The notes under the pieces were generated by a model. That model saw nothing but the letters and a program-made list of their open reading frames with translations, was not told the origin of the DNA and ran no database searches. A DNA stretch of 40,930 nucleotides, from NCBI GenBank assembly GCA_045649705.1, contig JAZRQI010000283.1, forward strand, positions 1 to 40,930, written 5' to 3'. This document shows positions 14,098 through 38,107 of the stretch, in pieces; position 1 is the stretch's first letter; every line of letters begins with the position of its first letter. The position numbers and the translations under genes are program-made. This stretch comes from Acutalibacteraceae bacterium. Its GTDB lineage: Bacteria > Bacillota > Clostridia > Oscillospirales > Acutalibacteraceae.

Positions 14098-17000
14098 TTA
14101 ATAGGGAGTTTGTTTTATTTCGCCTTGAGAAATACCAATATCTTCCATTACAGAAGTATCTGACTCCGTCACAATATAATCGTGGTTTACATCCATTGCT
14201 TTGATTTGTGCATCTGCAAACTGACTTCTCAGGAAATATCCGTAAATATACATTTTTGTAATAAAAGCATCGTTTGCATTTACATCTCCGTCTCCGTCAA
14301 TGTCACCATAAATAACGACAGCCAGGGTTCTGTAGATCTTTCCGCTTCCGTCAAGAAGCACCAGATTGTCACCTGTACCCACTTTGTCGTTATCGCCCTT
14401 CCTGTTACCGTTTTTGTCATACAGGGCTATATTTACATTTTCAAACTGAAGACAAAGGCCTTTTGCTGTATATGTATTGATTGTCAATCCGTAAACCAGC
14501 CTCTGACCGTATTTATCAATAATAATCGAAGCATTATCCCTGAGTCCGAAGTCATCTGCAAAGATGACATTGTTTTCATCAAGAGAGTATGTTGAGTCAA
14601 CAAGTGTGAATTTGCCTGAATATTTGCTTATGTCGTCATTGGTTGCAATAACGGATGAACCGATAATATAGTTCTCCATTTCAACGTTACCAATCAGTTC
14701 GGGAACGACATATTCTTTAACTATCTCATTACCCTCTTCATCATAAATCGGGTCAGGACGTTGCACATTTATAACCTTGTCGTCAGCAAGATAAATACTA
14801 TTTGACTCATCAACACCTGCACCGTCATAAATGTTCAGTGTTCCGTTTGAATAAATACCCACATTTGCGTTGTCAAAAATCGTACCACCGAAATAGTTCA
14901 TATTACCGTCAAGAATGTAAACTGCACCTTTATCTATAATGTTTTCAGTGATTTTACCGCTGTGCATCTCCACAGTACCTTCTGATTTGACTGCACTGTC
15001 AATTCCGTTCGCACCGAAAATAACAGTTCCTGAATAAATTTTCAAAACACCGTTTCCGGAAACTTCAATCATTGAGTCAGCTGTAACATTTGTACCGTTA
15101 ACAAACAGAACATCTGTTGTGTAATCGTCGGTGATATTACCAAATGAAAGGACGGACATAGTCTGTTCAGGGTCAGCGTTCTCCACCACTCTGAACATAG
15201 GTCCTTCAAAACCTTCAGCAACTGAAATTGAATGTTCAATTCCGTCAGATTCAATAGTGATATTACTTTTTATAACCACAGTTTCTTTCAGTACAATATC
15301 ATCAATCAGAGTTATAATCGCAGGTTTATCACCAATATCTGCCATTGCTTCTTCTATTGAAGTGTACGGAACTTCATCTGATTGGAAGAAACTTGCTTTA
15401 AGAACGTATTTTATTTCATTTGTTGTCAGTCTTCCGCCTGAATTAACGTGCCATACAGTCTCATCCTGAGGTGTGATTGCACAAAGGTTTGAGTTCATAG
15501 CAGTGTAACTGCCATCAAGAACACGAACACCTTCTTCATATATTTCAGGTGTTACTGTGACAATTGATGATGAATAAATTGATTTCGCCATCATCATAAT
15601 TTTCTCACCATAAGGCAAGTAAACATCATTTGATGGATCAATAAATGCACCTGAATAGAAGCTGAGTGTTCCATCAGTATAAACAGCATCACCACAGACT
15701 GTGGATGTATTATCATAAACACTACCATCATAAATGTTAAATTTGCCCTTGTCAGCTACGCTGAATGCGCCACCATATGAAGCTGAGTTAAGATAAATTG
15801 CGCCACCGTTGAAATTGACAGTACCACCGCCAACATATACAGCACCACCCTCACCTGAGGTATTGCTATAAATGTCGGTACCTGTGTTAATATTCAGTGT
15901 GCCACCTGCATTGAATATTGCACCACCTGCAAGTTTCGCGTTGTTGTTTGTCATTTCAACAGAAAATACATTCATTTCGCCTTTATTGTATGCAACACCG
16001 CCTGCCTGTAAACCCGTACCTGCAGAAATTGAACCGCCATAGAAATTAACAGTACCTTCATTGTAAACGAAACCACCCATACCTGCTGTGTTATTCGTTG
16101 TCACTACATCATAGCAGTTAAATGTACCGCCTTTTTCAACAGTAATAAGGGACGATGCAAATTTTGAATTAGTAATATCCACAACGTTATTACCATCGAT
16201 GTTAAGTACTGCATATTTAGCGTCATCTGCACCGAAATTGAGCACACCACCATCTTTAACAGTAAACACCTGATCGTAATAGTGCTTTACTCTTTTAAGC
16301 TTTATCGAGTCATTTGTAGGAATTATAGTTACATTACCTGTCACAACTATTTCGCTTCCTATTTTCTCCAAATCAGCCATAATTTCAATTATGCCTGTAC
16401 CTGTACCGATTTTTTCAGTAGCCTCTGTAAGAGTTTTATAATATGAAGTCTCACTACTGCTGATAACTTTACATATAAGACCGGCTTTGAGATAAGCTAC
16501 ACTCTCAGCCGAAATATCATAGAGATCAAAATCAGGAGATGAAACAAAAGTTTCCAACTGAGGATAATTCACGAAAAACTCTGTATCTGCTGTAGGAATC
16601 CAATAATCAACAGAGAAACCCACAAGGTTAGACAGTGCATTCAGACCTGTCATTTTTGTTGTAGCAAGACCTGTGGCAAACCTATCCGTTACTGATATTT
16701 TATTCTTATCATAATACGAAGATTTCACTGTACCGTTTGTAAGTTCACCGAGGATTGCATATATTTCCGTTGCACTGTCGCCTAATCCAAGAACATCTCC
16801 AACAGAATATGTAGAATCGATTATACCCTGAGTTCTCAGTCCGCCTGATATACCACCGGCTCTTGCTGCAGAAGAAACAGTGCCTCTGTTATAACAGTTT
16901 GAAACAACAGAACCGTCGCTGATTCTTCCTGCAATACCACCCGCATACATTGTTGTTGCAGTTACTTCACCTGCATTGAAAGAACGGGAAATATCGCTGA

Positions 17001-18786
17001 CATTTTCACCTACAATACCGCCTACAACCTCTTCGCCTGTAACAGTATTGTATGAACAACAGGTTTCAACAATAGAGTCAACAAAAGTTACACCTGCAAT
17101 GCCGCCTATATTTCTGATGCCTGTTACATCTGAATAAATACTCGAGGATTCCACAATTTCTCCGGCATTTTCACCTGCAATACCACCGACGTTTGTTTCA
17201 CCGATTATTTCTGAATAAATAATTTTTACACCATAAATCTTTCCGTCATTTTTACCTGCTACTGAGCCTACAAAATCAGAACCGGAAACAAGAGACTCGG
17301 TAATTGTCACATCAGATATAATTGATGTGACACTTGTAGCACCAAACAAACCAACAGAATCACCTGAAGGCACATACAAACCTCTAATACTGAAACCGTT
17401 ACCTGAGAATTCACCGCCGAACTCACTGCCTTCAACAGACCCGATGGGTGTCCATATATTTGATTCTTCACCCAGGTTACCAACATTAAGAACAATACTG
17501 TTCATAAGCATTGCACTTGCAGTATTATCCTGTTCCACACCGTCAAGTGTGCCGTTTACAAGACCTGCAAACCATGCAAGTTCACGTGCATTGGTAATAA
17601 GATAATATTTATTGTCAGAGGATAACTTAGGCGCTGAGACAGTACCGTCCCAGAGGTTCTGGTCAGCCTGCCAGGACATAATGGGATACCCGTTATTTCT
17701 AAGAAGATAATCGTAATAGTAGTTACCTGCCGCACTGTTGAGTGAAGACACAAAACCATGTCTTTTCATATCATCTGTTGTCATAGGAATACCGTTATCT
17801 TCTTTACCTGTGAAGAGAGTTGAATCATAATAACAATCTGTGATTTTTGCAGTGTAATAGAAAGCTGCAATAGCACCTGTAAGTCCTTCAGGTGTCGAAA
17901 TCGACTCAACAGCCGATGCGTTATAACAAGATGATATATCGCCAACATTGTTACCGACAATACCTGCTACACGCAAATCGCCTGTGATTTTACCTCTGTT
18001 ATAGCAGCTGATAACAACACTGCCTGAGTTAGTACCCGCAATACCGCCTACATATTTACCTGTTGATGCAACACTTGCCATATTGAACGACTGTGAAATG
18101 GTAGAATCAGCAAAAATACAACCTGTGATACCTCCGATACGGTGACCCGTAGCTTTAATTTCACCCTCAAAACCGCAAAAAGAAATATTACCTTTATTTG
18201 CAAGATAACCTGAAATACCACCCACATTGTCAGCTCCTGAAACATAGGAACTTGTAACATAAACCTGAGTAACCGAACTTCTGTTATTTGCATAACCTGC
18301 AATTGTACCAACATTACTTCCGCCGCTTACATTAGCATTTGAAATATTAACATTTCTAACCTGACCGTTTTCAATATACCCGAACAACCCCTGATAATCG
18401 GATGTGCTTGAAATTGCGAGTCCGTAAATTGTAAAACCTTTGCCGTCAAAAATACCACTGAACACCCTACCTTCTGCTGAATAGTTACCTATGGGCGTCC
18501 AGTTTTTGAAACTACCGCTTGTTTCGGGGTCACTGAGATATATGTCTTTCATCAGACGAGCTTTCAGAGTTGAATTACCTGCATCAGCATTGACCTGATT
18601 GGCAAACCAGGCAAGGTCTTCCGCACTCTGAATAAGATAGAATCCGTCATTAGACTGAGACGGTATAACAGTTGATGCCTCTCCTGACCATATATCTGCT
18701 GCCACAGCAGTAAGAGACGTTGCGGTAAACGCCATTATCACCGCCATAATACAGACTAAAAATTTATGTAATCTTTTAATTTTCAT
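14098..18786 (-). CDS. giant secreted surface protein: signal peptide, two GLUG-repeat modules, parallel beta-helix-like region, C-terminal dockerin
   Basis: The signal peptide ends ...LTAVAA. The repeated GGIAG/GGISG/GGITG (GLUG) motifs form two collinear modules of about 340 aa. A GGA(V/I)(Y/F)N-type repeat region follows. The C-terminus GDIDGDGDVNANDAFI...MDVNHDYIVTESD is a dockerin. Confidence 0.85.
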   Translation of the reverse strand: MKIKRLHKFLVCIMAVIMAFTATSLTAVAADIWSGEASTVIPSQSNDGFYLIQSAEDLAWFANQVNADAGNSTLKARLMKDIYLSDPETSGSFKNWTPIGNYSAEGRVFSGIFDGKGFTIYGLAISSTSDYQGLFGYIENGQVRNVNISNANVSGGSNVGTIAGYANNRSSVTQVYVTSSYVSGADNVGGISGYLANKGNISFCGFEGEIKATGHRIGGITGCIFADSTISQSFNMASVASTGKYVGGIAGTNSGSVVISCYNRGKITGDLRVAGIVGNNVGDISSCYNASAVESISTPEGLTGAIAAFYYTAKITDCYYDSTLFTGKEDNGIPMTTDDMKRHGFVSSLNSAAGNYYYDYLLRNNGYPIMSWQADQNLWDGTVSAPKLSSDNKYYLITNARELAWFAGLVNGTLDGVEQDNTASAMLMNSIVLNVGNLGEESNIWTPIGSVEGSEFGGEFSGNGFSIRGLYVPSGDSVGLFGATSVTSIISDVTITESLVSGSDFVGSVAGKNDGKIYGVKIIYSEIIGETNVGGIAGENAGEIVESSSIYSDVTGIRNIGGIAGVTFVDSIVETCCSYNTVTGEEVVGGIVGENVSDISRSFNAGEVTATTMYAGGIAGRISDGSVVSNCYNRGTVSSAARAGGISGGLRTQGIIDSTYSVGDVLGLGDSATEIYAILGELTNGTVKSSYYDKNKISVTDRFATGLATTKMTGLNALSNLVGFSVDYWIPTADTEFFVNYPQLETFVSSPDFDLYDISAESVAYLKAGLICKVISSSETSYYKTLTEATEKIGTGTGIIEIMADLEKIGSEIVVTGNVTIIPTNDSIKLKRVKHYYDQVFTVKDGGVLNFGADDAKYAVLNIDGNNVVDITNSKFASSLITVEKGGTFNCYDVVTTNNTAGMGGFVYNEGTVNFYGGSISAGTGLQAGGVAYNKGEMNVFSVEMTNNNAKLAGGAIFNAGGTLNINTGTDIYSNTSGEGGAVYVGGGTVNFNGGAIYLNSASYGGAFSVADKGKFNIYDGSVYDNTSTVCGDAVYTDGTLSFYSGAFIDPSNDVYLPYGEKIMMMAKSIYSSSIVTVTPEIYEEGVRVLDGSYTAMNSNLCAITPQDETVWHVNSGGRLTTNEIKYVLKASFFQSDEVPYTSIEEAMADIGDKPAIITLIDDIVLKETVVIKSNITIESDGIEHSISVAEGFEGPMFRVVENADPEQTMSVLSFGNITDDYTTDVLFVNGTNVTADSMIEVSGNGVLKIYSGTVIFGANGIDSAVKSEGTVEMHSGKITENIIDKGAVYILDGNMNYFGGTIFDNANVGIYSNGTLNIYDGAGVDESNSIYLADDKVINVQRPDPIYDEEGNEIVKEYVVPELIGNVEMENYIIGSSVIATNDDISKYSGKFTLVDSTYSLDENNVIFADDFGLRDNASIIIDKYGQRLVYGLTINTYTAKGLCLQFENVNIALYDKNGNRKGDNDKVGTGDNLVLLDGSGKIYRTLAVVIYGDIDGDGDVNANDAFITKMYIYGYFLRSQFADAQIKAMDVNHDYIVTESDTSVMEDIGISQGEIKQTPY

Positions 18787-30007: not shown

Positions 30008-31003
30008 ATGAAAGGATCTTTGACTATGTTATTTTTTAATAAAATTTCTTCTTTTTTCTTTATGCTGATTCTGACAATCACTTCACTATTCGGATTACCT
30101 CTCAACGGGTACGAATCAAGACAGTTATTTAACGACATTAGTTTTGAAAAAGGATTCACGGTTATGTCCCAGACTACAGAAAACGGTGTCGGAATTGAAC
30201 TTGGTAATTTCACTTACAACGATAACAATGAAACTCCCAACTGGATGATAGCTCAGTGGAATTCAGGAAACTGTCTTTGGGAAAACAGAACCGACAGTGA
30301 CAAATTCACAATCACAGACGGTCTCACAAAAACTGTCACCTACAATCCTGATGACAAATCAGTTTCAATGAGACTAAATGCTGCAAATATTTATAACGGT
30401 GGGCCTGCACCGTATGAAAACTGGCCTCACCTGCTCCTTGAACAGTCACCCATCTGCGACTATTTCCAATTAAGCGAAGAAGACAAGTCTTTCTACAACT
30501 GTTCAGCAGACAGAATAATTTTGTCACTTGATATAAGGCTTGAAGATTTTAAGGACACCACAAATAAAGACGGCGTGAACGCTGCACAGCATCTCGCATA
30601 TTTCTACCTCAAAGGAACAGATAACAACAAATTTATCTGGTTCGGTGTAAATCTCTTTGACAGCAGAGGTTATATGGACGAAACATGGTCACTTGACAAA
30701 GGAAGCGGTCAGATGATTTACTCTCTTTCGACAAAAGATACCTTCGGAAGCAAACGTAATTCGCTTTACAGGAACGGAAAGCCATATGTTTCTGACGAAT
30801 GGACACACATAGAAATTGATTTAAAGCCGTATATCGAACACGCAATGGTACGTGCAAACGAATCCGATACTTTTGGTGAGGAAGTCGGCGCAGAAGATTT
30901 CTACATTGGTGGAACAAATATCGGTTTTGAAATCCACGGAAACTACGATTGCACCGTTGGTATAAAGGATTTCAAACTGACATCATATAATAAAGTTAAA
31001 TAA
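30008..31003 (+). CDS. secreted protein of unknown function
   Basis: It has a hydrophobic N-terminal signal (…FFFMLILTITSLFGLPLNG). ATG 30026, preceded by AAAGGA, is an alternative and perhaps better start. I recognise no family. Confidence 0.7.
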   Translation: MKGSLTMLFFNKISSFFFMLILTITSLFGLPLNGYESRQLFNDISFEKGFTVMSQTTENGVGIELGNFTYNDNNETPNWMIAQWNSGNCLWENRTDSDKFTITDGLTKTVTYNPDDKSVSMRLNAANIYNGGPAPYENWPHLLLEQSPICDYFQLSEEDKSFYNCSADRIILSLDIRLEDFKDTTNKDGVNAAQHLAYFYLKGTDNNKFIWFGVNLFDSRGYMDETWSLDKGSGQMIYSLSTKDTFGSKRNSLYRNGKPYVSDEWTHIEIDLKPYIEHAMVRANESDTFGEEVGAEDFYIGGTNIGFEIHGNYDCTVGIKDFKLTSYNKVK

Positions 31004-31011
31004 CAAACAAC

Positions 31012-31046
31012 AAAGCCACACTCATTGCTGAGTGTGGCTTTGTTTT
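31012..31046. terminator. bidirectional terminator between convergent genes
   Basis: The 12-bp stem AAAGCCACACTC/GAGTGTGGCTTT has TTTGTTTTT on plus and TTTGTTGTTTGTT on minus. Confidence 0.85.
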
Positions 31047-34003
31047 TACCAGAGAAGCGCAGTCTTCTTAACATGTCTCAGAATAGAAGTATAATCAAGA
31101 ACATTGACTTTACCATTTGCATCAACATCTGCACAGATTGCCTCATAACCTTCAAGAAGTTTTGTTTTCTTAACATGACGCAATACCATTGTATAGTCAA
31201 GAACATTAAGTTTGCCATCACCATTCACATCACCGATAAGATGAATTTTATATTCAAGACCTGAAATCTCCTTACCGCTTACTGTGAGTTCATATTCACG
31301 CATTGTGTGGTTCCACTTAATTATTCTCACCTGATATGTTCCGCTGGGAACACTTTCGAATAAAAACTCATTGACTCCAAAACCTTCGACATCAACAATC
31401 CGGATCGTTTCACCATTCTGCATTAACTCAATTGTAGAAATTGATTCACCTTCATCACCTTCATATGATGGGAAACTTTCAAGTATACCTGAAACGACAT
31501 AGCCTGACGGATCGAAAACCAAATCAAGACTGATTTCCTGACCGTTTAATGAACCTATAAATTCTGCAAAGAAAAGTGTAATTTCCTCAACAACTTCATC
31601 ACTTGTTTGACAGGATTCAAGATTTGATATAAAATCACTAACATTTCCGTTATCACTATAACCTGAAATTCCTATTGTAAGGAAATCATTGAATGTCATT
31701 CTGTGGTTGCCAATTGCAAAAATTGAACCTACAGGAATATAAATTTCAATCAATCCGTCTTCAATAGCTTCTGCTTTTTCAAACTTGAATTCAGGTTTTT
31801 CTTCAACCTTACTGAATGTATAAATCTCATCCGGATTTTCAAAAGTAAGCCTATCTGTACCTATCTGAATGTATGCTGTACCGGGAAGTTTGATATGGTT
31901 TGTGATACGATTTGCCTCTTCTTCATCCGTGGGGAAGTCTTCATCATATTTCTCGATTTTTTCAGATGTAATATGAGACACAAACTCGCTGAATGCTGCA
32001 CTTGCATCATCCTTGCTTGTAGGCACCGCGTTCATTACATATAACTCTGATGTATTTGCTGAAGTAATATTATAATCAAAATTCTTATAGACAACATTGC
32101 TTGTTGAATCCTTGGTACTTACTGTACCTGACAATGTTGCATTTTTAAAAGCAGATAAATAATCTCCAAATGCAATTTCTTTACCCGTTTCTGATTTCAC
32201 TGTACTCTGATAAGTAACCTCATCTTCAATGCCGAATGAAGGCATATCAGAAACAGAGAGAGATGTTGTAACACCGCTTGTATTAACTATCGAGTTTTTA
32301 GGAACTGTAAAATTAAAATTAAAGTCTGAGTCTGCAACAGTTGTAAAGAAGGTATTACCGTTTGACTGTGCACTCATAATAAAATTACCTACAGGTTTAG
32401 GCATAATATGTGAACTGATAACAACATCACAGTCTGCACAATGGATATATCTTATACCATCAACAATAGCAGTAGGATAGATATACTCTGCTCTGCCCGG
32501 TGTATGACCTTTTGCGGGAGTAAATCCATCATTATATGTATGGTCTCCACGGATACAGGAGTAAATTGTATAACCCTCTTCAAGACAAGTAGGTGGTACT
32601 ACTTCTGTTTCATATTCGTGACCGAGTTCATCGAGTACGCGTGTGTTAACCGGATTTCCGCACATTGTACAGTGCTGTGCTTCCTCACCCTTTGTTGTAC
32701 AAGTGGGAGCAATTGTAACAACCCATTCATCTGAGGGATTACAAGCAGATGCATCACCTACTACGGTTTTTGTCTTACCGCAGATACAAGTGTATGTTGT
32801 TGTTCCGCCACTACCACAAGTTGCTGAACCACCAATAATAGGATCTTTGTAATATCCCCATTTATCAACATCATCTTTATACATATCCCAGATACAAGGT
32901 GCTTCCTGAAGATTACTGAACGCATCAACAAGTGCCTGGTCAGCATTTTTACCGTTTTCACAGGCAATTCGGAATCCGTAGTTGGGACCTGCAACTGCAA
33001 GACCTACCTGATATGCCATATCAAGTGCTGAAACGAAGTTACTCCACGATTCTGCAGTATATCTGCCCTCCTGTACATAACAACCGTCCACAAACATACC
33101 ATTAAGGCCAAGCATTCTGTCCGCATACGTTTTAGCACTCTGTTTATCAAAACTATCAAGATAGTACATTTCTGTGCTAAGAACAGTGTTTGACTCATCA
33201 TCCCACTTTACATTTGTGGCATTCATATCAATTGTGAAATTATAGTAACCCGAATCAGGAGTTGACCACATAAGCCATGTGCCTTCTGCCTCCTGTCTGT
33301 ACCACTGAACTGTGGGCCAGTGAACATCATAGAATCTCATTGTATCTGGAACATTACCGGATATAACCTGAGTTACTGATGTTCTTGTGCTGAATGTAAT
33401 GAAAAAGTGCTGCGTTTTCAATGTGTAAAGAAGTGCAGCTGAGGGCACCTGAACATAACAGGAATTAAGTTTATCCATCGATGTAAAACGTGCACCATCG
33501 TCCAAATCACCAGGGTTATTGGGTTCTGTGCCGATTGCACCTGTTTTCTCTTCGGTAGCAGAAGCCACACCATAAGCGTATCCTGTAAGGTTTTTCCATA
33601 CAGTATCGCCGTTCTTATCAAGAATATCATATTTGATTGTGTAGCGTACCACTGAGTTTGTGGTTTCGCTGATATGACCTGTTACAGGAAACTTCGTTTC
33701 ACTTTCAACAATCTGATCTGCCTGATATGTAACAGTAAGATTTGAGGTGTCCCCCTCTTCAACAAAAGGAAGTTCTACGCCTATATTATCAATTCTGACT
33801 TTATAATTACTGTCAGTTATGGTTGCAACAAAGTTTGCTTCAACTTTCGTTACACCTATAATATCATTTTCCTGTCTGAATTGAACAGGGTTGAAACTTT
33901 CCGCACCGCCGCCGATACCTATCTGACGGGCACTTACCGCCATAGAAAAACAACCGGCAAGAATTGTCAGAACAAGAATCACAGAAATGACCTTTTTGAA
34001 CAT
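31046..34003 (-). CDS. secreted modular dockerin protein, architecture A-module / Cys-repeats / C-module / dockerin (985 aa)
   Basis: Signal peptide MFKKVISVILVLTILAGCFSMAVSA. The N-half is collinear with the 810-aa paralog and the C-half with the 463-aa paralog. The C-terminus GDVNGDGKLNVLDYTMVLRHVKK...ADVDANGKVNVLDYTSILRHVKK is a two-segment dockerin. GGAGG RBS. Confidence 0.85.
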   Translation of the reverse strand: MFKKVISVILVLTILAGCFSMAVSARQIGIGGGAESFNPVQFRQENDIIGVTKVEANFVATITDSNYKVRIDNIGVELPFVEEGDTSNLTVTYQADQIVESETKFPVTGHISETTNSVVRYTIKYDILDKNGDTVWKNLTGYAYGVASATEEKTGAIGTEPNNPGDLDDGARFTSMDKLNSCYVQVPSAALLYTLKTQHFFITFSTRTSVTQVISGNVPDTMRFYDVHWPTVQWYRQEAEGTWLMWSTPDSGYYNFTIDMNATNVKWDDESNTVLSTEMYYLDSFDKQSAKTYADRMLGLNGMFVDGCYVQEGRYTAESWSNFVSALDMAYQVGLAVAGPNYGFRIACENGKNADQALVDAFSNLQEAPCIWDMYKDDVDKWGYYKDPIIGGSATCGSGGTTTYTCICGKTKTVVGDASACNPSDEWVVTIAPTCTTKGEEAQHCTMCGNPVNTRVLDELGHEYETEVVPPTCLEEGYTIYSCIRGDHTYNDGFTPAKGHTPGRAEYIYPTAIVDGIRYIHCADCDVVISSHIMPKPVGNFIMSAQSNGNTFFTTVADSDFNFNFTVPKNSIVNTSGVTTSLSVSDMPSFGIEDEVTYQSTVKSETGKEIAFGDYLSAFKNATLSGTVSTKDSTSNVVYKNFDYNITSANTSELYVMNAVPTSKDDASAAFSEFVSHITSEKIEKYDEDFPTDEEEANRITNHIKLPGTAYIQIGTDRLTFENPDEIYTFSKVEEKPEFKFEKAEAIEDGLIEIYIPVGSIFAIGNHRMTFNDFLTIGISGYSDNGNVSDFISNLESCQTSDEVVEEITLFFAEFIGSLNGQEISLDLVFDPSGYVVSGILESFPSYEGDEGESISTIELMQNGETIRIVDVEGFGVNEFLFESVPSGTYQVRIIKWNHTMREYELTVSGKEISGLEYKIHLIGDVNGDGKLNVLDYTMVLRHVKKTKLLEGYEAICADVDANGKVNVLDYTSILRHVKKTALLW

Positions 34004-34051
34004 TTTTATTTTCCTCCTCGCATTCTCGTAAAATACAAATACGTCTATATA

Positions 34052-34080
34052 ATCATAGCACTTTCAAAAAGATAAATCAA
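34052..34080 (-). promoter_or_regulatory. candidate promoter of the 985-aa gene (TTGATT-17-TATGAT)
   Basis: The minus strand reads TTGATTtatctttttgaaagtgcTATGAT. It sits between the upstream terminator and the RBS. Confidence 0.45.
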
Positions 34081-34091
34081 GTAAAATCAAT

Positions 34092-34131
34092 AAAAAAACA
34101 CCTCTTACGACATGATATCGTAAGAGGTGTT
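34092..34131 (-). terminator. rho-independent terminator of the 463-aa gene
   Basis: The 12-13 bp stem CACCTCTTACG/CGTAAGAGGTG is followed on the minus strand by T7. Confidence 0.88.
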
Positions 34132-34144
34132 AATTTAAAAAATC

Positions 34145-35503
34145 TTACCAGAGTGTATCTGTTTTCTTAACATGTCGGAGAATTGCTGCATAGTCTGAAA
34201 CATTCACTCTGCCGTCGCCATTGACATCAGCACAGTCGTATTCATAACCGGTAAGTTCCGCTGTTTTCTTAACGTGTTTGAGAGTTTCTGTGTAGTCCAT
34301 AACGTTGATTTTATCATTACCGTCAACGTCACCGATAAGGTTAAGTTTAAGGTTTTCAATAACAATCTCACCGTTAACTTCGATTTCGTATTCACGTGTT
34401 ACGTGATTTTCTTTTGAAACTCTGATTGTGTATGTACCGTTTGTTACAGCATCAAAGTTATAAGAATCTGTTGCTGTGATTGACTGAAGAACTTCACCAC
34501 CAGATACGAGTTCAATTGTTGTTTCTTCATCTGCAAGAGCACTGTCAATTGAACCTGAAACCTGTGTGCCTTTTTCTTCTTCAAATTCAACATTTACAAC
34601 AAGATCGTTGCCGTCAATTGAGTTAGCAAAGTCTGTAATAAAGAGAACACCTGCAATGATAATCTCTTCATTTGACTGACAATCTCGAAGTGTTGAGAAG
34701 ATTGTGTTTACGGTATCATTATCATCATAACCGTACATTTTGATTGTTGCACTGTCATTGAGTGTTACAATAGACTGACCAACTGCAAGAACTGTACCTG
34801 CAGGAATATATGCTTCAATCTGTGCATCTTCAAGTTCTTCAACTTCTTCAAGTTTAACTGCTGATCTGATTTCTGCTTTAAGGCCTGTACCCTGCATAAT
34901 GTTGTCAAGTTTCACTGTTTCTTCTGTATTTTCAAAAGAAAGTTTTTCTGTACCAATCTGAATATATGCAGTACCGGGAATTTCAGCATAACTGTCATCT
35001 TCTGCTTTTGTTCCTGCTGTTATGTGTGATGCGAGTGCCTGATAAGCTTCTCTTACTGCTTCTTCACTTTCAGGGATTGCTTCGACTGTGTAACTTTCAG
35101 CAGTATCAAATGCTTCGATATTATATTTATATTCAATACCGTCAATTGTACCTGAAACTGTTGCACTTTCAAAAGCAGGAAGATAGTTATCAAATGCAAC
35201 TTCATTGTCAACGCCTGTTGTAATTGTTTTTGAATAAGTTCTTGTGCCTGTGATACCGAGAGATGCGATATCTGTCATACTGATTGTGCCTGTAAGTTCT
35301 TTTGCATTGATAACAGAGCCAAAAGGAACTGTAAGTTTAGCAGAATAGTCGCTCATTACAACGCCTTTCATAAAATCTGTACCATTTGAATTAAGTGTCA
35401 CTGACACTTTTTCGCTGATGTCATCCTTAGCTGTAACTGCCATTGAGAAACAGCCGAAAACAACAGCCAGTGCAAGGAAAAGTGCAATAATTTTTTTACA
35501 CAT
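34145..35503 (-). CDS. secreted dockerin protein, architecture C-module / dockerin (452 aa from ATG 35503)
   Basis: The signal is MCKKIIALFLALAVVFGCFSMAVTA, with a GGAGG RBS 8 nt upstream of ATG 35503 (track start 35536 is TTG). The body is collinear with residues about 540-985 of the 985-aa paralog. The dockerin is GDVDGNDKINVMDYTETLKHVKK...ADVNGDGRVNVSDYAAILRHVKK. Confidence 0.85.
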   Translation of the reverse strand: MCKKIIALFLALAVVFGCFSMAVTAKDDISEKVSVTLNSNGTDFMKGVVMSDYSAKLTVPFGSVINAKELTGTISMTDIASLGITGTRTYSKTITTGVDNEVAFDNYLPAFESATVSGTIDGIEYKYNIEAFDTAESYTVEAIPESEEAVREAYQALASHITAGTKAEDDSYAEIPGTAYIQIGTEKLSFENTEETVKLDNIMQGTGLKAEIRSAVKLEEVEELEDAQIEAYIPAGTVLAVGQSIVTLNDSATIKMYGYDDNDTVNTIFSTLRDCQSNEEIIIAGVLFITDFANSIDGNDLVVNVEFEEEKGTQVSGSIDSALADEETTIELVSGGEVLQSITATDSYNFDAVTNGTYTIRVSKENHVTREYEIEVNGEIVIENLKLNLIGDVDGNDKINVMDYTETLKHVKKTAELTGYEYDCADVNGDGRVNVSDYAAILRHVKKTDTLW

Positions 35504-35539
35504 ATTAAGACCTCCGTTTATTTTTAATTGTCTCAAATT

Positions 35540-35568
35540 ATAATATCACCATTTAGTTATAAAATCAA
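35540..35568 (-). promoter_or_regulatory. candidate promoter of the 463-aa gene (TTGATT-17-TGaTATTAT)
   Basis: The minus strand reads TTGATTttataactaaatggtgaTATTAT, in the 89-nt gap after the 810-aa gene. Confidence 0.45.
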
Positions 35569-35592
35569 GTCTGTTTGTTAAAAGATTATTTT

Positions 35593-38025
35593 TTATATAG
35601 TCGGCACCTGACCGATTTCAGTTTCACCGTTAACAACAGAATTGAGGATTGCAAGGTCATAGATATCTGCAACGGTATCTCCGTTAAGGTCTGCTGCAAA
35701 AAGAATCGGTGAATCTTCCTCAAGGACCATATCGCCATTTACTATTGCTGCAAGAATTGAAGCATCGTAAATATCCACAACGCCGTCACCGTTAAGGTCA
35801 CCAAAGATTACAATTACGAAAGTTTCCCATTCATCTTCACCACGGTAAGTAGTAACAACAGAGCCTGTACCTACACCATTAGAAAGTTCTACTGTTACGT
35901 TTTCAGCATAATCAACATAATCTTCAATATCATCGAGTCCTATATCAAGACCATAGATGAAACCGAGTTCTCTGTCAATAACTGTTGTTGAACCGTCTTC
36001 TTCTTTGAAATAACCGCCCGTCATGGGAATAACAACTGTCGTTCGGCTTAATTCATCGCCACAGACTGTACAATAAACCACTTCATCATATGAACCTGAC
36101 GTTGTGTCGGTAGCTTCGATTCTGTTTTCTTCAACCGTATCTCCCTCAGTATGTGCTATTGTAGAAACGGGTGTAGTTGCACGTGAAATTTCATCATCAC
36201 ATACTTCGCAGTAAACTACTGTATCAAATGAGCCTTCTTTTGAGCAAGTCGGGTCAACCACATTTTCAATAACTTCTTCAAGTGGTGTATGTCCCGAAGC
36301 ATCAATATAATTTGCTGTATAGCTATCATCACAATATGAACAAATATATTCAGTATAGCCCTGTTCTGTACAGGTAGGTGCAACATCTGTAGCTTCATAT
36401 ATATGACCTTTTGCAGGAACATAGTTACTTGTTCCAACATATGTACAGTTTCTGCAAGAGTAAACCGTATATCCCTGTTCTGTACAGGTAGGTTTCACAG
36501 TGTAATAGTTATATGAATGTCCTGTGGGTATAACATAGTCACTTGTGTAAGTATAACCACAGATTGTACACACATTTGTTGAGTAACCCTGTTCAGTACA
36601 TGTGGGCGGTGTAGATGTTGTTGCAAATACATGTGCAATTTTGGGTGTTATTTTTTCTTCTACAACAACATTACAAACTGTACAACGCACTTCCTCTTTA
36701 CCCTCGCTGTCACATGTTGCTGTTTTTACAACTGTCCATGCACCGCGTGTATGTCCTGTTGCAGGAATAACGTTTGTTTTTGTTTCACCGCAGATACATG
36801 TGCAGAATTCTGAACCGTCTTCTGTACAAGTCGGAGGTGTAACAACAGTATCTTTGTATGTATAGAAATCGTGTTCTGCTTCTTTAAGATTTGCAAAAGC
36901 TGCATCAACTGCTTCGTCTGCTGACTGTGCATTGAGACAAGCAAGTTTGTAACCATAGTTCGCATTGGGAACTGCGAGTGTTACCTGATATGCAATATCA
37001 AGAGCCTGAACGAATTTATCCCATGAATCCTGAGTATATTTGCCTTTCTGCACATAATAACCGTCTGCAAAGGTATTTGTTGTTTTCACATACTTGTTTG
37101 CAGCATTTATTGCATTAACTTTATCAGCATTTCTGATGTAGTACATCGTTGTGGTTTCTGTGATATTTGACTGGTCTTCCCATTCATCTCCCCATGTGTT
37201 GAAGCTGATTGTGAAGTTATAGTAACCTGATTCCGGTTCTGTCATTCTCAGCCAGTCACCACTTGCTGAACGATACGCCGCACCGCATTTAGGCCAATTC
37301 ATAGTACCTTCTTTCTGCGAACCACCGTTATCAGGCATCATCATAACAGTTGATGGTGCATTACCTGAAATAATACCTACCCCTCGTGTTCTCGGGTCAT
37401 GATAATGCCAGGCTGACTGTGTTCTGACTTTATAAAGAAGGTTAAGTTCAGACTGCTGAACATAAGTTGTATTGAGAGTATCAAGAACTTCAAAATAACA
37501 ACCATCACTCAACTGACCGGGGTAAGCATGGTTTGTGCCAACTGCACCTGTTGTTGCCTGGTTTGTACTTACAAAAGCGTAGGAATATCCTGTAAGATTT
37601 TTCCATACTGTTGTATCTTTCTTATCAAGAATATCATACTCAACTGTATAACGGACAACAGAGTTAACATTAGCTGTAAGTGAGCCTGTAACAGTAAATG
37701 CCTCTGCACCGCTGACAACCACACCTTTTGTATAAGCGACATTAAGATAAGAAATACCGCCCTCGATGTAATAAGGGATATAAGCAGTAATTGAGTTGAT
37801 TCTGACTTTATAGTTCTTATCAGTCACTTCCACATTGAATGTAGTGTTAACTTCACTGCCTACAAGCAAATCTTTTGCAGGAGAAAACTTAACAGGATTG
37901 AAACTTTCCGCACCTGCACCTACTCCTACATCCCTTGCCTGTGAAACAATCGAACCGAATCCGATTGAAAAACAACCTGTAAGCATTGTTACAACAAGTA
38001 ATAATGAAAGTAATTTTTTACCCAT
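35593..38025 (-). CDS. secreted modular dockerin protein, architecture A-module / 6-7 Cys-repeats / small beta-domain / dockerin (810 aa)
   Basis: Signal MGKKLLSLLLVVTMLTGCFS. The N-module is collinear with the 985-aa paralog. The repeats follow PTCTEQGY..C..C....GH. The C-terminus GDLNGDGVVDIYDASILAAIVNG...ADLNGDTVADIYDLAILNSVVNG is a dockerin of a different sequence type. Confidence 0.85.
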   Translation of the reverse strand: MGKKLLSLLLVVTMLTGCFSIGFGSIVSQARDVGVGAGAESFNPVKFSPAKDLLVGSEVNTTFNVEVTDKNYKVRINSITAYIPYYIEGGISYLNVAYTKGVVVSGAEAFTVTGSLTANVNSVVRYTVEYDILDKKDTTVWKNLTGYSYAFVSTNQATTGAVGTNHAYPGQLSDGCYFEVLDTLNTTYVQQSELNLLYKVRTQSAWHYHDPRTRGVGIISGNAPSTVMMMPDNGGSQKEGTMNWPKCGAAYRSASGDWLRMTEPESGYYNFTISFNTWGDEWEDQSNITETTTMYYIRNADKVNAINAANKYVKTTNTFADGYYVQKGKYTQDSWDKFVQALDIAYQVTLAVPNANYGYKLACLNAQSADEAVDAAFANLKEAEHDFYTYKDTVVTPPTCTEDGSEFCTCICGETKTNVIPATGHTRGAWTVVKTATCDSEGKEEVRCTVCNVVVEEKITPKIAHVFATTSTPPTCTEQGYSTNVCTICGYTYTSDYVIPTGHSYNYYTVKPTCTEQGYTVYSCRNCTYVGTSNYVPAKGHIYEATDVAPTCTEQGYTEYICSYCDDSYTANYIDASGHTPLEEVIENVVDPTCSKEGSFDTVVYCEVCDDEISRATTPVSTIAHTEGDTVEENRIEATDTTSGSYDEVVYCTVCGDELSRTTVVIPMTGGYFKEEDGSTTVIDRELGFIYGLDIGLDDIEDYVDYAENVTVELSNGVGTGSVVTTYRGEDEWETFVIVIFGDLNGDGVVDIYDASILAAIVNGDMVLEEDSPILFAADLNGDTVADIYDLAILNSVVNGETEIGQVPTI

Positions 38026-38107
38026 ATTAATTTTCCTTTCTGTAAATTTACAATTTGTTTACATTTATACAAACTAATAATAACACTTTAACAAAAAAAA
38101 ATCAAGC

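Follow-up and report, generated by a model that had tools for sequence, protein, structure and literature searches.

Three neighbouring genes on the minus strand of an Acutalibacteraceae contig encode proteins that end in dockerins and otherwise consist of modules that an initial annotation of this DNA could not place in any named family. How these proteins are related to one another, and what they might do at the surface of the cell, are the questions addressed here. The window, meaning the whole 40,930-nucleotide stretch of DNA that was analysed, contains the three genes side by side, and the coordinates of their features are collected in Table 1.

Organization of the locus

An ORF check placed the three genes where the initial annotation had them, coding for 810, 452 and 985 aa, with one revision. 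The middle protein had been read as 463 aa from a TTG at 35536, but it starts at the ATG at 35503, which is preceded by a GGAGG ribosome binding site; the TTG extension runs into the -10 box of this very gene, and it is the 452-aa form that is deposited in the public record. Each gene had been credited with its own promoter-like element, and an extended -10 layout, CTTGATTT-N-GTGnTAT(T/G)AT, is indeed present upstream of all three. Likewise, two of the genes possess the terminators ascribed to them, as 16-bp stems after gene 2 and gene 3, and none was found between the gene of the 810-aa protein and the middle gene. The neighbourhood includes sugar metabolism genes (GH2, GH4 and sugar-phosphate isomerase-like TIM barrels), and the metabolic genes on either side, which are cytoplasmic, remain syntenic regardless of the architecture of the cluster.

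Table 1. Positions of the genes, modules and transcription signals in the window (SP, signal peptide; bs, transthyretin-like beta-sandwich)
Feature	Position	Strand	Evidence
Gene 1, 810 aa: SP-A'-B(about 7 units)-X-Doc2	35593..38025	-	ORF; Dockerin_1 26.4 bits; orthologues; dN/dS 0.11
Gene 2, 452 aa: SP-C'N-bs-Doc1	34145..35503	-	ORF, RBS; orthologues; dN/dS 0.24
Gene 3, 985 aa: SP-A-B(about 4 units)-CN-bs-Doc1	31046..34003	-	ORF; 24 full-length orthologues; dN/dS 0.16
Promoter-like element of gene 1, TTGATT-17-TATTAT with TG	38077..38105	-	
Signal peptide of the 810-aa protein, residues 1-30, predicted cleavage after SQA/RD	37936..38025	-	
Module A' (810-type head), two beta-sandwiches + helical bundle	36856..37935	-	44% identity to A of 985; separate clade
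Module B (proposed stalk) of 810, about 7 Cys3His units of ~38 aa (PTCTEqGY..CxxC..GH)	36031..36855	-	
X module preceding Doc2 (810)	35806..36030	-	Always beside Doc2 in relatives
Dockerin type 2 (Pfam Dockerin_1) of 810	35596..35805	-	84-97% conserved among 810-type orthologues
Promoter-like element of gene 2, TTGATT-17-TATTAT with TG	35540..35568	-	
C'-N domain of gene 2, ~270 aa, beta-rich + two helical segments	34613..35416	-	AF2
Transthyretin-like beta-sandwich (bs) of gene 2, X-like partner of Doc1	34337..34612	-	Weak CarboxypepD_reg/PEGA; Foldseek
Dockerin type 1 of gene 2	34148..34336	-	34.7 bits; 65% identical to 985 Doc1
Intrinsic terminator 3' of gene 2, 16-bp stem + T-run	34097..34131	-	
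Promoter-like element of gene 3, TTGATT-17-TATGAT with TG	34052..34080	-	
Module A (985-type head)	32849..33925	-	AF2 model, Foldseek
Module B (proposed stalk) of 985, about 4 units, partly degenerate	32384..32848	-	
C-N domain of 985, paralogue of C'-N, 33-38% identical	31514..32383	-	
Transthyretin-like sandwich of 985	31244..31513	-	NOMO2 + X-Doc profile matches
Dockerin type 1 of 985	31049..31243	-	Dockerin_1 38.7 bits
Intrinsic terminator 3' of gene 3, 16-bp stem	31009..31044	-	

Modules of the three proteins

The large collinear blocks reported for the three genes proved significant in BLASTP. Residues 1-535 of the 985-aa protein align with 1-537 of the 810-aa protein (40% identity over 550 aa, E=8e-124), which corresponds to modules A and B, and residues 543-985 align with 46-463 of the 463-aa form of the middle protein (38% over 452 aa, E=2e-91), which corresponds to module C and the dockerin, while the 810-aa protein and the 463-aa form have only the signal peptide and a weak dockerin similarity in common. 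The strings and module boundaries quoted in the initial annotation were correct on checking, and so was its description of the genes as modular paralogues. Its module C, however, is actually two units, a domain of ~270 aa (C-N) and a transthyretin-like sandwich, and the statement that the dockerin travels with module C holds for the sandwich but not for the ~270-aa domain. Similarly, modules A and C-N do lack a named family in Pfam, NCBIfam and PDB sequences, whereas module B and the sandwich-dockerin pair can be placed. Searches with Pfam, NCBIfam, PDB profiles and Foldseek gave no catalytic or carbohydrate-binding signature, in agreement with the first reading, nor any confident CAZy, CBM or peptidase match for A or C; in the PDB profile searches only the dockerin and X-Doc parts were matched.

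Module A of the 985-aa protein was modelled by AF2 with a pLDDT of 88.4 and a pTM of 0.85, and the model, with strands at residues 14-255 and helices at 258-337, describes a pair of Ig-like beta-sandwiches followed by a helical bundle. Foldseek on the PDB returned only generic tandem Ig/FnIII sandwiches (TMq <=0.28). The helical part had been likened to a FIVAR segment, but Pfam FIVAR (PF07554) is undetected in the helical tails of the 985- and 810-aa proteins even at E<=10 and is likewise missing from the whole-protein scans, and with a helical bundle modelled at this place the resemblance is at the motif level only. Remoter proteins with module A bear BspA-type LRR_5 and Big_3 domains, and beta-sandwich heads of this kind are compatible with many roles.

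Module B, to which Pfam and NCBIfam have no match, is built of repeated units in which C14, G18, C24, C27 and H41 are invariant across 34 units; these Cys3His units are probably stabilised by zinc. The profile of the unit matches the IgA protease of Thomasclavelia ramosa (9qa6_A, E=1.7e-6) three times in its C-terminal tail, although the best single-unit i-E is 0.11, that is, the homology per unit is weak, and the matched positions agree with CTD2 (880-1008) and CTD4 provided that the chain begins after the signal peptide. This link came to light through a 794-aa neighbour in a related locus (L002), which had been checked as a cohesin partner. In the protease, CTD2 and CTD4 are Cys/His beta-sheet domains that form an extended rod by SAXS and have been proposed as periscope domains (PMC12415215). 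By sequence comparison, module B is related to these zinc-linked "periscope" rods, and the weak per-unit homology suggests zinc binding and a rod shape here too. The CxxC span in the A' lineage varies between species in whole-unit steps (114/152/190/376 and 162-166/204-206/251 aa), and among the 23 orthologues of the 985 lineage it measures 77 aa in all but P0021, which has 78 aa.

The C'-N region was modelled with moderate confidence (AF2 pLDDT 70-87), and Foldseek gave no convincing fold match in the PDB or in BFVD. A C-N profile finds 200 representative clusters at 50% identity, 137 of them at E<=1e-10, and the modules that co-occur with these relatives are SLH (24/58), Big_2, Flg_new, dockerin, PG_binding and SH3, with no enzyme domain among them. 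Invariant positions in these proteins are mostly G, P, Y and W, which are structural residues, and the conserved polar residues of C-N are D221, T218 and S10 (invariant) and H131, E162 and E251 (near-invariant).

That all three proteins carry dockerins was borne out by Pfam Dockerin_1 (PF00404), which scores 38.7 (985), 34.7 (middle) and 26.4 bits (810), in each case above the gathering cutoff of 22.9 bits. Each C-terminus contains two D-x-N/D-x-D/N-G loop-helix repeats, and the family profiles match PDB dockerins. The X module that precedes the dockerin of the 810-aa protein has a weak match to FG-GAP_3 (26.6 bits, just under the 26.9 cutoff). For the sandwich of the middle protein, Foldseek returned 2nsm, 1qmu, 6hif_Y (TMt 0.65, rmsd 2.9) and 4v4c_B (rmsd 3.6), and against the viral structures of BFVD a CarboxypepD_reg protein at TMt 0.68, over the sandwich only; PF13620 scores 17.8 bits in the middle protein and 25.5 in a relative (P0034), under its cutoff of 32.3. 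Sandwich and Doc1 together match the X-Doc chains 5k39_B, 5m0y_B, 2b59_B and 4u3s_B (prob 1.0, ~155 columns, 21-23% identity in Foldseek), and a profile match to 4u3s_B extends across both sandwich and dockerin at E=2.9e-8. Model and profiles thus agree in presenting the pair as an X-Doc-like dyad, which occurs on unrelated proteins as well (L001, 584 aa; L012, 533 and 874 aa; L016, 2452 aa). Pfam found no cohesin in the three proteins, so they are cargo rather than scaffold. No cohesin partner was found within the window, and the only candidate nearby, the 794-aa neighbour mentioned above (L002:395-2779), stayed below threshold as such a partner (21.0 bits against a cutoff of 24.1, E~0.7).

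Evolution of the cluster

Among MAGs of ruminant-gut Acutalibacteraceae, about 12 species have the cluster in a single syntenic slot. The 985-aa protein has 24 full-length orthologues with 41-86% identity, the 810-aa protein has P0041-P0054 and an 812-aa protein of L002, and gene 2 has orthologues of 449-471 aa in L001, L002, L005, L009-L012 and L022. Proteins closely related to the 810-type protein have no annotation beyond 'hypothetical protein', and in the relatives P0026-P0029 a single chain bears two dockerins.

At least seven cluster layouts exist in this same slot, which supports the earlier view of a recombining family. The proposal that the 985-aa protein is a recent fusion, or that the other two are its fission products, did not survive: A and A' are only 44% identical and C and C' 33-38%, whereas within the separate orthologue lineage of each, identity across species is 55-90%, and these identity levels together with the module trees rule out a one-step fusion or fission. 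The trees rather indicate that the three genes are old paralogues whose architectures have repeatedly been rebuilt by recombination between neighbours; a crossover between C and C' is seen in L021, and bs-Doc1 has been exchanged as well. Gene 2 retains the family signal peptide, and the C' clade has fused A-B-C'-Doc1 forms at its base, therefore the stand-alone C'-Doc1 gene looks like a derivative that arose by internal deletion of A and B.

All three genes are under purifying selection, with dN/dS values of 0.11 (810), 0.24 (gene 2) and 0.16 (985) compared to 0.00-0.03 for the flanking enzymes; gene-wide positive selection was not seen, as every value lies below 0.3. The cluster proteins evolve far faster than these flanking enzymes, being 59-81% identical where the flanks are 86-99% identical, and fast evolution is typical of fibrillar adhesins (PMC9210967). 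The sandwich of the 985-aa protein has a raised dS of 2.2 in comparison with L002.

Proposed function and alternatives

We propose, with a probability of roughly 60%, that the three genes encode secreted, non-catalytic stalk-and-head surface proteins that are docked to cohesins and whose heads bind an external ligand, in the manner of 'periscope' or fibrillar adhesins. Signal peptides are present, consistent with the export predicted earlier for all three proteins, and signal peptidase I would cleave each of them at a conserved A-x-A/R or A-x-A/K site. The C-terminal dyad, either the transthyretin-like sandwich with Doc1 or X with Doc2, would then attach the protein to the cohesin of a scaffoldin that is bound to the cell or to a complex, and the two dockerin types most likely select different cohesins. 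The module B rod of ~38-aa Cys3His units would serve the 810- and 985-aa proteins as a stalk that keeps the N-terminal module A head at a distance from the anchor, and the 985- and 452-aa proteins would also display the ~270-aa C-N domain, which other Clostridia carry on proteins with an SLH, peptidoglycan or dockerin anchor. It is most likely that the heads recognise a ligand outside the cell, such as a substrate particle, a host glycan or another cell. In the 985-aa protein, C-N sits between stalk and anchor, which makes it a poor fit to a simple head-stalk-anchor layout. A more specific version can be offered only tentatively, namely that A and C-N are two new ligand-binding families and the cluster a fast-evolving, recombining locus of attachment specificity, encoding cohesin-dockerin-anchored periscope adhesins with two dockerin specificities and a stalk length tuned by the number of Cys3His units.

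Several other explanations have to be weighed against the stalk-and-head proposal. Apart from the unusual arrangement itself, nothing favours chance similarity or the decay of one ancestral gene into fragments, whether as pseudogenes or as an assembly artefact, and the probability of this is negligible given the BLASTP E-values, the intact orthologues of each gene in the same slot of many independently assembled MAGs, the dN/dS of 0.11-0.24 and the separate promoter and ribosome binding site of each gene. It is also very improbable that the proteins are lipoproteins held by a lipidated N-terminal Cys, in which case the topology would be reversed, with the dockerin at the free end and in a position to capture partners that bear cohesins. 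By the lipobox criterion ([LVI][ASTVI][GAS]C at the end of the signal peptide), L-A-G-C in the 985-aa and L-T-G-C in the 810-aa protein place a candidate Cys18 after a K-rich n-region and a hydrophobic core. However, the Cys of this 'GCFS' segment is not conserved across the family (it is missing in P0025, P0029, P0030, P0033 and P0036), the -1/-2 positions often break the lipobox (F-S-C, V-F-G-C), and the hydrophobic stretch goes on to the A-x-A/R or A-x-A/K signal peptidase I motif, which is kept in all family members; the lipoprotein assignment was rejected on these grounds.

The proteins could instead be purely architectural or adaptor parts (spacers, stabilisers or geometry regulators) of a cellulosome-, amylosome- or mucinolysome-like complex, with no external ligand, an unlikely reading that nevertheless agrees with the absence of catalytic and CBM signatures, with the structural nature of stalk repeats and X-Doc dyads, with the adaptor-like layout of the two-dockerin relatives and with the cohesin-dockerin complexes known in the same bacterial family (PMC12997984). 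The lack of a cohesin in any of the three argues against it, as do the conserved N-terminal domains, where a dN/dS of 0.08-0.09 for module A suggests a specific function, and the presence of C-N on many different anchors, as expected for a functional head domain. Less likely still is an unrecognised catalytic domain in module A or C-N, representing a new glycoside hydrolase, lyase or peptidase family in a degradative complex. C-N has no fold assignment, its model confidence leaves room for a cryptic catalytic fold, and conserved polar residues and nearby sugar metabolism genes would fit such a role; on the other hand, Pfam, NCBIfam and PDB profiles gave no match, module A is modelled as an Ig-like sandwich pair, the invariant positions are mostly structural, the C-N relatives are S-layer or adhesin-type proteins without co-occurring enzyme domains, and the metabolic genes nearby are cytoplasmic and syntenic whatever the architecture.

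Comparison with known systems

CttA of R. flavefaciens, in which N-terminal binding modules are anchored through an X-Doc to a cell-wall cohesin (PMC4266597), is the closest functional precedent. It is likewise a secreted, non-catalytic protein with a C-terminal X-dockerin dyad from related gut Clostridia with elaborate cohesin-dockerin systems (PMC4266597, PMC5301203). However, its heads are cellulose-binding modules with a demonstrated ligand, to which A and C-N are unrelated, it lacks the Cys3His stalk repeats of the 810- and 985-aa proteins, and the X module described here is a transthyretin-like sandwich.

The M64 IgA protease of T. ramosa (9qa6; PMC12415215) resembles module B in the Cys/His pattern and sequence of its repeats, which, as in the 810- and 985-aa proteins, separate the functional part at the N-terminus from the surface anchor at the C-terminus. 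The protease carries a metzincin catalytic cargo and a sortase anchor, in contrast to the non-catalytic cargo and dockerin anchor found here, where the repeats also follow one another in regular tandem, with 4-8 or more ~38-aa units per array and a number that differs between orthologues. With periscope and fibrillar adhesins such as SasG, Aap and Sgo_0707 (PMC8201768, PMC9210967, PMC9999234) the cluster proteins share fast evolution and would share a head-stalk-anchor plan with a tandem-repeat stalk, here of variable length in the A' lineage, but the canonical members have G5/E, SHIRT or Rib stalks and LPXTG anchors instead of a Cys3His repeat and a cohesin-dockerin pair, and their repeat number varies between strains (PMC8201768), whereas the variation seen in this family is between species.

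The dockerin proteins of Ruminococcus cellulosomes and amylosomes and of Limousia mucinolysomes, all Oscillospirales, similarly combine a signal peptide, uncharacterised modules and a C-terminal dockerin (PMC2930009, PMC4611034, PMC12997984), and no sequence relationship of A or C-N to the described Ruminococcus or Limousia components was found. A link to the Limousia mucinolysome was considered and dropped: the bacterial family is the same, but the MAG names and accessions searched for were not found in the supplement text (PMC12997984). Ruminococcus-type genomes are well known to encode dockerin proteins that are non-catalytic and of uncharacterised function (PMC2930009, PMC4266597), so that the term 'undescribed system' used in the initial annotation was too strong.

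Conclusions

The proteins neither open nor settle a long-standing question. They do add three sequence families that are absent from Pfam and NCBIfam, namely the C-N domain, the module A head and the Cys3His rod unit; the first of these comprises about 200 clusters at 50% identity, the majority belonging to proteins with an S-layer anchor, and the last is widespread and has so far been known only from one paper on an IgA protease. The locus is a clean natural case of domain shuffling through recombination of tandem paralogues, with intermediates that survive in sister species. If the stalk-and-head proposal is true, it would join cellulosome-type cohesin-dockerin assembly with the stalk-and-head adhesins of Gram-positive bacteria, which are usually treated as separate topics, and the three proteins would be candidate attachment factors of the abundant, uncultured Acutalibacteraceae of the ruminant hindgut.

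Gene organization of the cluster

All three minus-strand ORFs reported by the initial annotation are present, and encode A'-B-X-Doc2 (810 aa), C'-Doc1 (middle gene) and A-B-C-Doc1 (985 aa). The shared collinear blocks that it had read by eye proved correct by BLASTP, as the 985-aa and 810-aa proteins are 40% identical across the first ~535 residues (E=8e-124), and nearly the whole middle protein aligns with the C-terminal 443 residues of the 985-aa protein at 38% identity (E=2e-91). Between the 810-aa protein and the middle one, similarity is limited to the signal peptide and, faintly, the dockerin. The expected dockerins are found in all three (Dockerin_1 above the Pfam gathering cutoff), and besides these no family reaches the cutoff in Pfam and NCBIfam scans of the three proteins.

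Each gene is preceded by a purine-rich ribosome binding site (RBS) and, as had been described, by a promoter-like element, which has the shared layout CTTGATTT...GTGnTAT(T/G)AT (-35 box and extended -10). The two strong hairpin terminators were also recovered, one after the middle gene and one after the 985 gene; none was found between the 810 and middle genes. The middle gene had been read as 463 aa from a TTG at 35536, which lies merely 4 bases past its own -10 box and 5' of the GGAGG RBS, therefore the real start is the ATG at 35503, giving 452 aa, the form also found in the public record.

Features of the window, of related loci in other genomes (L numbers) and of related proteins (P numbers)
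Feature	Location	Strand	Remarks
Mature N-termini with near-invariant motif	window 33880-33928, 37885-37935		first 8 residues of low pLDDT in model
bs-Doc1 (sandwich-dockerin) end of 985 gene	window 31049-31513	-
Fourth dockerin protein, 1562 aa	window 14098-18786	-	signal peptide; weak Peptidase_M26_N and Glug matches
331-aa ORF	window 30008-31003	+	N-terminal hydrophobic segment; convergent to 985 gene
794-aa protein	L002 395-2779	+	~3 kb upstream of cluster
2452-aa BspA-type LRR protein	L016 69-7427
>1252-aa module-A protein	L016 7446-11201		next after the 2452-aa protein
1170-aa proteins	L008 2530-6045 (P0026); L014 2-3073		Doc2 internal, Doc1 terminal
[A'-B-X-Doc2][C'-Doc1][A-B-C-Doc1]	window, L002, L005, L009
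[A'-B-X-Doc2][A-B-C-Doc1]	L003, L004, L006		middle gene missing
[A-B-C-Doc1][C'-Doc1][A'-B-bs-Doc1]	L001, L012
Gene order as L001/L012	L010		third gene with X-Doc2
A'-B-C'-Doc1	L022		third gene
A-B-C'-Doc1, 953 aa	L021		one gene in place of genes 1 and 2

Probable stalk and head

Module B consists of ~38-aa units of the pattern H-x10-PTCTExGY-x4-CxxC-x13-GH, in which C, G, C, C and H do not vary across 34 units. The unit profile matched one relevant chain in the PDB, 9qa6_A 'IgA protease' (E=1.7e-6), with three matches in its C-terminal tail. This tail would correspond to CTD2 and CTD4 of the T. ramosa IgA protease, which are described as beta-sheets joined by predicted Cys/His zinc sites (PNAS 2025, PMC12415215); CTD2 is an extended rod by SAXS, and the same paper proposes an 'uncharacterized metal-associated periscope domain' by which the catalytic domain is held at a distance from the cell. 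B-type repeats are widespread among Clostridia surface proteins with LRR_5, cohesin, fn3, SLH or Big_1 modules. Stalk length is constant in the 985 lineage, and in the A' lineage it varies in steps of one or more complete units.

The module A model, built from a 54-sequence family alignment (pLDDT 88.4, pTM 0.85), consists of a pair of beta-sandwich domains (~14-122 and ~145-255 in model numbering) and, C-terminal to them, a helical bundle (258-337), and the FIVAR-type tail suspected earlier was undetected by Pfam even at E<=10. Foldseek against the PDB returned only generic tandem Ig/FnIII-type sandwiches (~10% identity, TMq <=0.28), including transglutaminase C-terminal barrels, VesC, RbmA and Fabs. 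All module-A proteins have in common a near-invariant R-x-x-G-V/I-G-x-G-A-E-S-F-N-P-V-x-F directly past the predicted signal peptidase site. Among GTDB species representatives, module A was found at 18 loci, all in MAGs that bear the label Acutalibacteraceae, Oscillospiraceae, Clostridia or Eubacteriales; both of those with a stated origin come from deer rectum. In L016, the LRR protein ends in the same sandwich-Doc1 dyad as in the cluster, and the next protein carries LRR_5 and Big_3 alongside a module A of 39% identity, thus module A is also used outside the three-gene cluster.

The composite nature of module C

Module C had been described as one unit, and turned out to be composite. The model of the middle protein (pLDDT 70.6) has first a beta-rich stretch of ~270 aa that includes two helical segments (C-N); a seven-strand sandwich and the dockerin come next. 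The latter two match the type-II X-Doc dyads of C. thermocellum (Foldseek prob 1.0, 21-23% identity) and also transthyretin-like carboxypeptidase regulatory domains, and the family profile covers both parts of the A. cellulolyticus ScaA X-Doc (E=2.9e-8). The placement of A and C outside named families holds for A and C-N (no Pfam/NCBIfam match), the sandwich and dockerin of C resembling known X-Doc dyads. 'Undescribed system' was too strong a term.

For C-N, neither the PDB nor BFVD offered a convincing fold match. A trimmed C-N profile, run in an exhaustive HMMER search, matched proteins of 350-2750 aa, some of them multi-copy, in 200 representative clusters, 137 of them at E<=1e-10. SLH domains are present in 24 of the 58 scanned proteins, Big_2, Listeria-Bacteroides repeats, dockerin, fn3, PG-binding or SH3 modules in others, and enzyme domains in none; these partners indicate that C-N is an undescribed domain, predicted to be surface-displayed on varied anchors. 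The metagenomic P0123 (2468 aa) has six C-N copies in tandem, thus C-N can itself serve as a repeat.

Recombination and evolutionary rates

The cluster always occupies one slot, GFO_IDH / 2x AP_endonuc_2 / cluster / (PfkB) / 326-aa hypothetical / MscL. Negatives of the word-indexed homologue search are unreliable for these sequences, as the sub-segments window:32849-33925 and window:31244-32383 gave 0 matches, the full-length protein gave 318, and the 449-471-aa C'-Doc1 orthologues are absent from the full-length list.

The module A tree has 985-type and 810-type clades, and the module C tree C and C' clades, with the fused C' forms P0030, P0025 and P0024 basal or interleaved. The signal peptide of stand-alone C'-Doc1 proteins is that of the full-length genes. 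Doc1 is invariably preceded by the sandwich and Doc2 by the X module, regardless of the part further upstream, therefore the travelling unit is the X-Doc dyad, and not a dockerin type bound to module C as had been proposed. In L021, the parts are joined precisely where the homology of C and C' begins ('...KPEG|KVVFSTQSNG...SDYSA'), indicating that paralogous modules in neighbouring genes have recombined. Old paralogy with repeated neighbour recombination replaces the earlier choice between fusion and fission for the 985-aa protein. The ~1170-aa relatives (also P0027-P0029) have two dockerins per chain, in the order A-B-X-Doc2, ~290 aa without assignment and sandwich-Doc1, and could bridge two cohesins.

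Among five genomes, identity is 86-99% for the flanking AP_endonuc_2 proteins, compared to 59-81% for the cluster proteins. Between the window and L002, dN/dS is 0.11 (810), 0.24 (452) and 0.16 (985), versus 0.00-0.03 for AP1 and AP2 (the AP_endonuc_2 genes), GH2 and GH4, which shows that the cluster genes are functional and constrained, yet 5-20 times less than their neighbours; this comparison gave no gene-wide positive selection in the three genes. The bs-Doc1 segment of the 985 gene has a dS of 1.2-2.2 versus L002, higher by a factor of two to four than elsewhere in the gene (0.5-0.7), and dockerin identities among orthologues do not track whole-protein identities, which suggests that the dyad was exchanged by gene conversion or replacement.

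Neighbouring proteins

The dockerin of the 1562-aa protein is Doc2-like (30% over 70 aa versus the 810 dockerin, E=6e-5) and possibly preceded by an X-like module; L022 has a 1554-aa Glug and dockerin gene close to its cluster. The 331-aa ORF lacks a Pfam match and has a dN/dS of 0.09 versus L002; its 325-326-aa counterpart adjoins the cluster in L001, L002 and L021, and is absent beside it in L022. The L002 794-aa protein, whose equivalent position falls past the window end, contains Cys/His repeats matching the T. ramosa IgA protease (9qa6_A, E=4e-25), a Big_2 domain, a Doc1-type C-terminal dockerin and a sub-threshold cohesin signal (Pfam 21.0 versus 24.1 bits; PDB type-II cohesins E~0.7), and is a possible adaptor scaffoldin.

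Proposed function

Chance similarity and pseudogenes are excluded by the alignments (E=8e-124, 2e-91) and by dN/dS of 0.11-0.24. A lipoprotein topology would draw on the lipobox-like 'LAGC/LTGC' of the window proteins; this motif is unconserved in the family and every member has an A-x-A|R/K signal peptidase I site, so that ordinary secretion appears to be the better reading and lipoprotein topology the less well supported one. A cryptic enzyme might be sought in A or C-N, the parts outside named families, and is likewise less well supported, as is a purely architectural role, to which the stalk repeats and X-Doc dyads would be suited.

The best-supported reading is that the three are secreted, non-catalytic proteins, which would dock onto cohesins through their X-Doc dyads. 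The 810-aa and 985-aa proteins would project an Ig-like head on a putatively zinc-binding rod, while the 985-aa and 452-aa proteins would display the C-N domain, with ligand binding as the presumed activity. As such, they may be functional analogues of R. flavefaciens CttA (PMC4266597) and of periscope or fibrillar adhesins (PMC8201768, PMC9210967).
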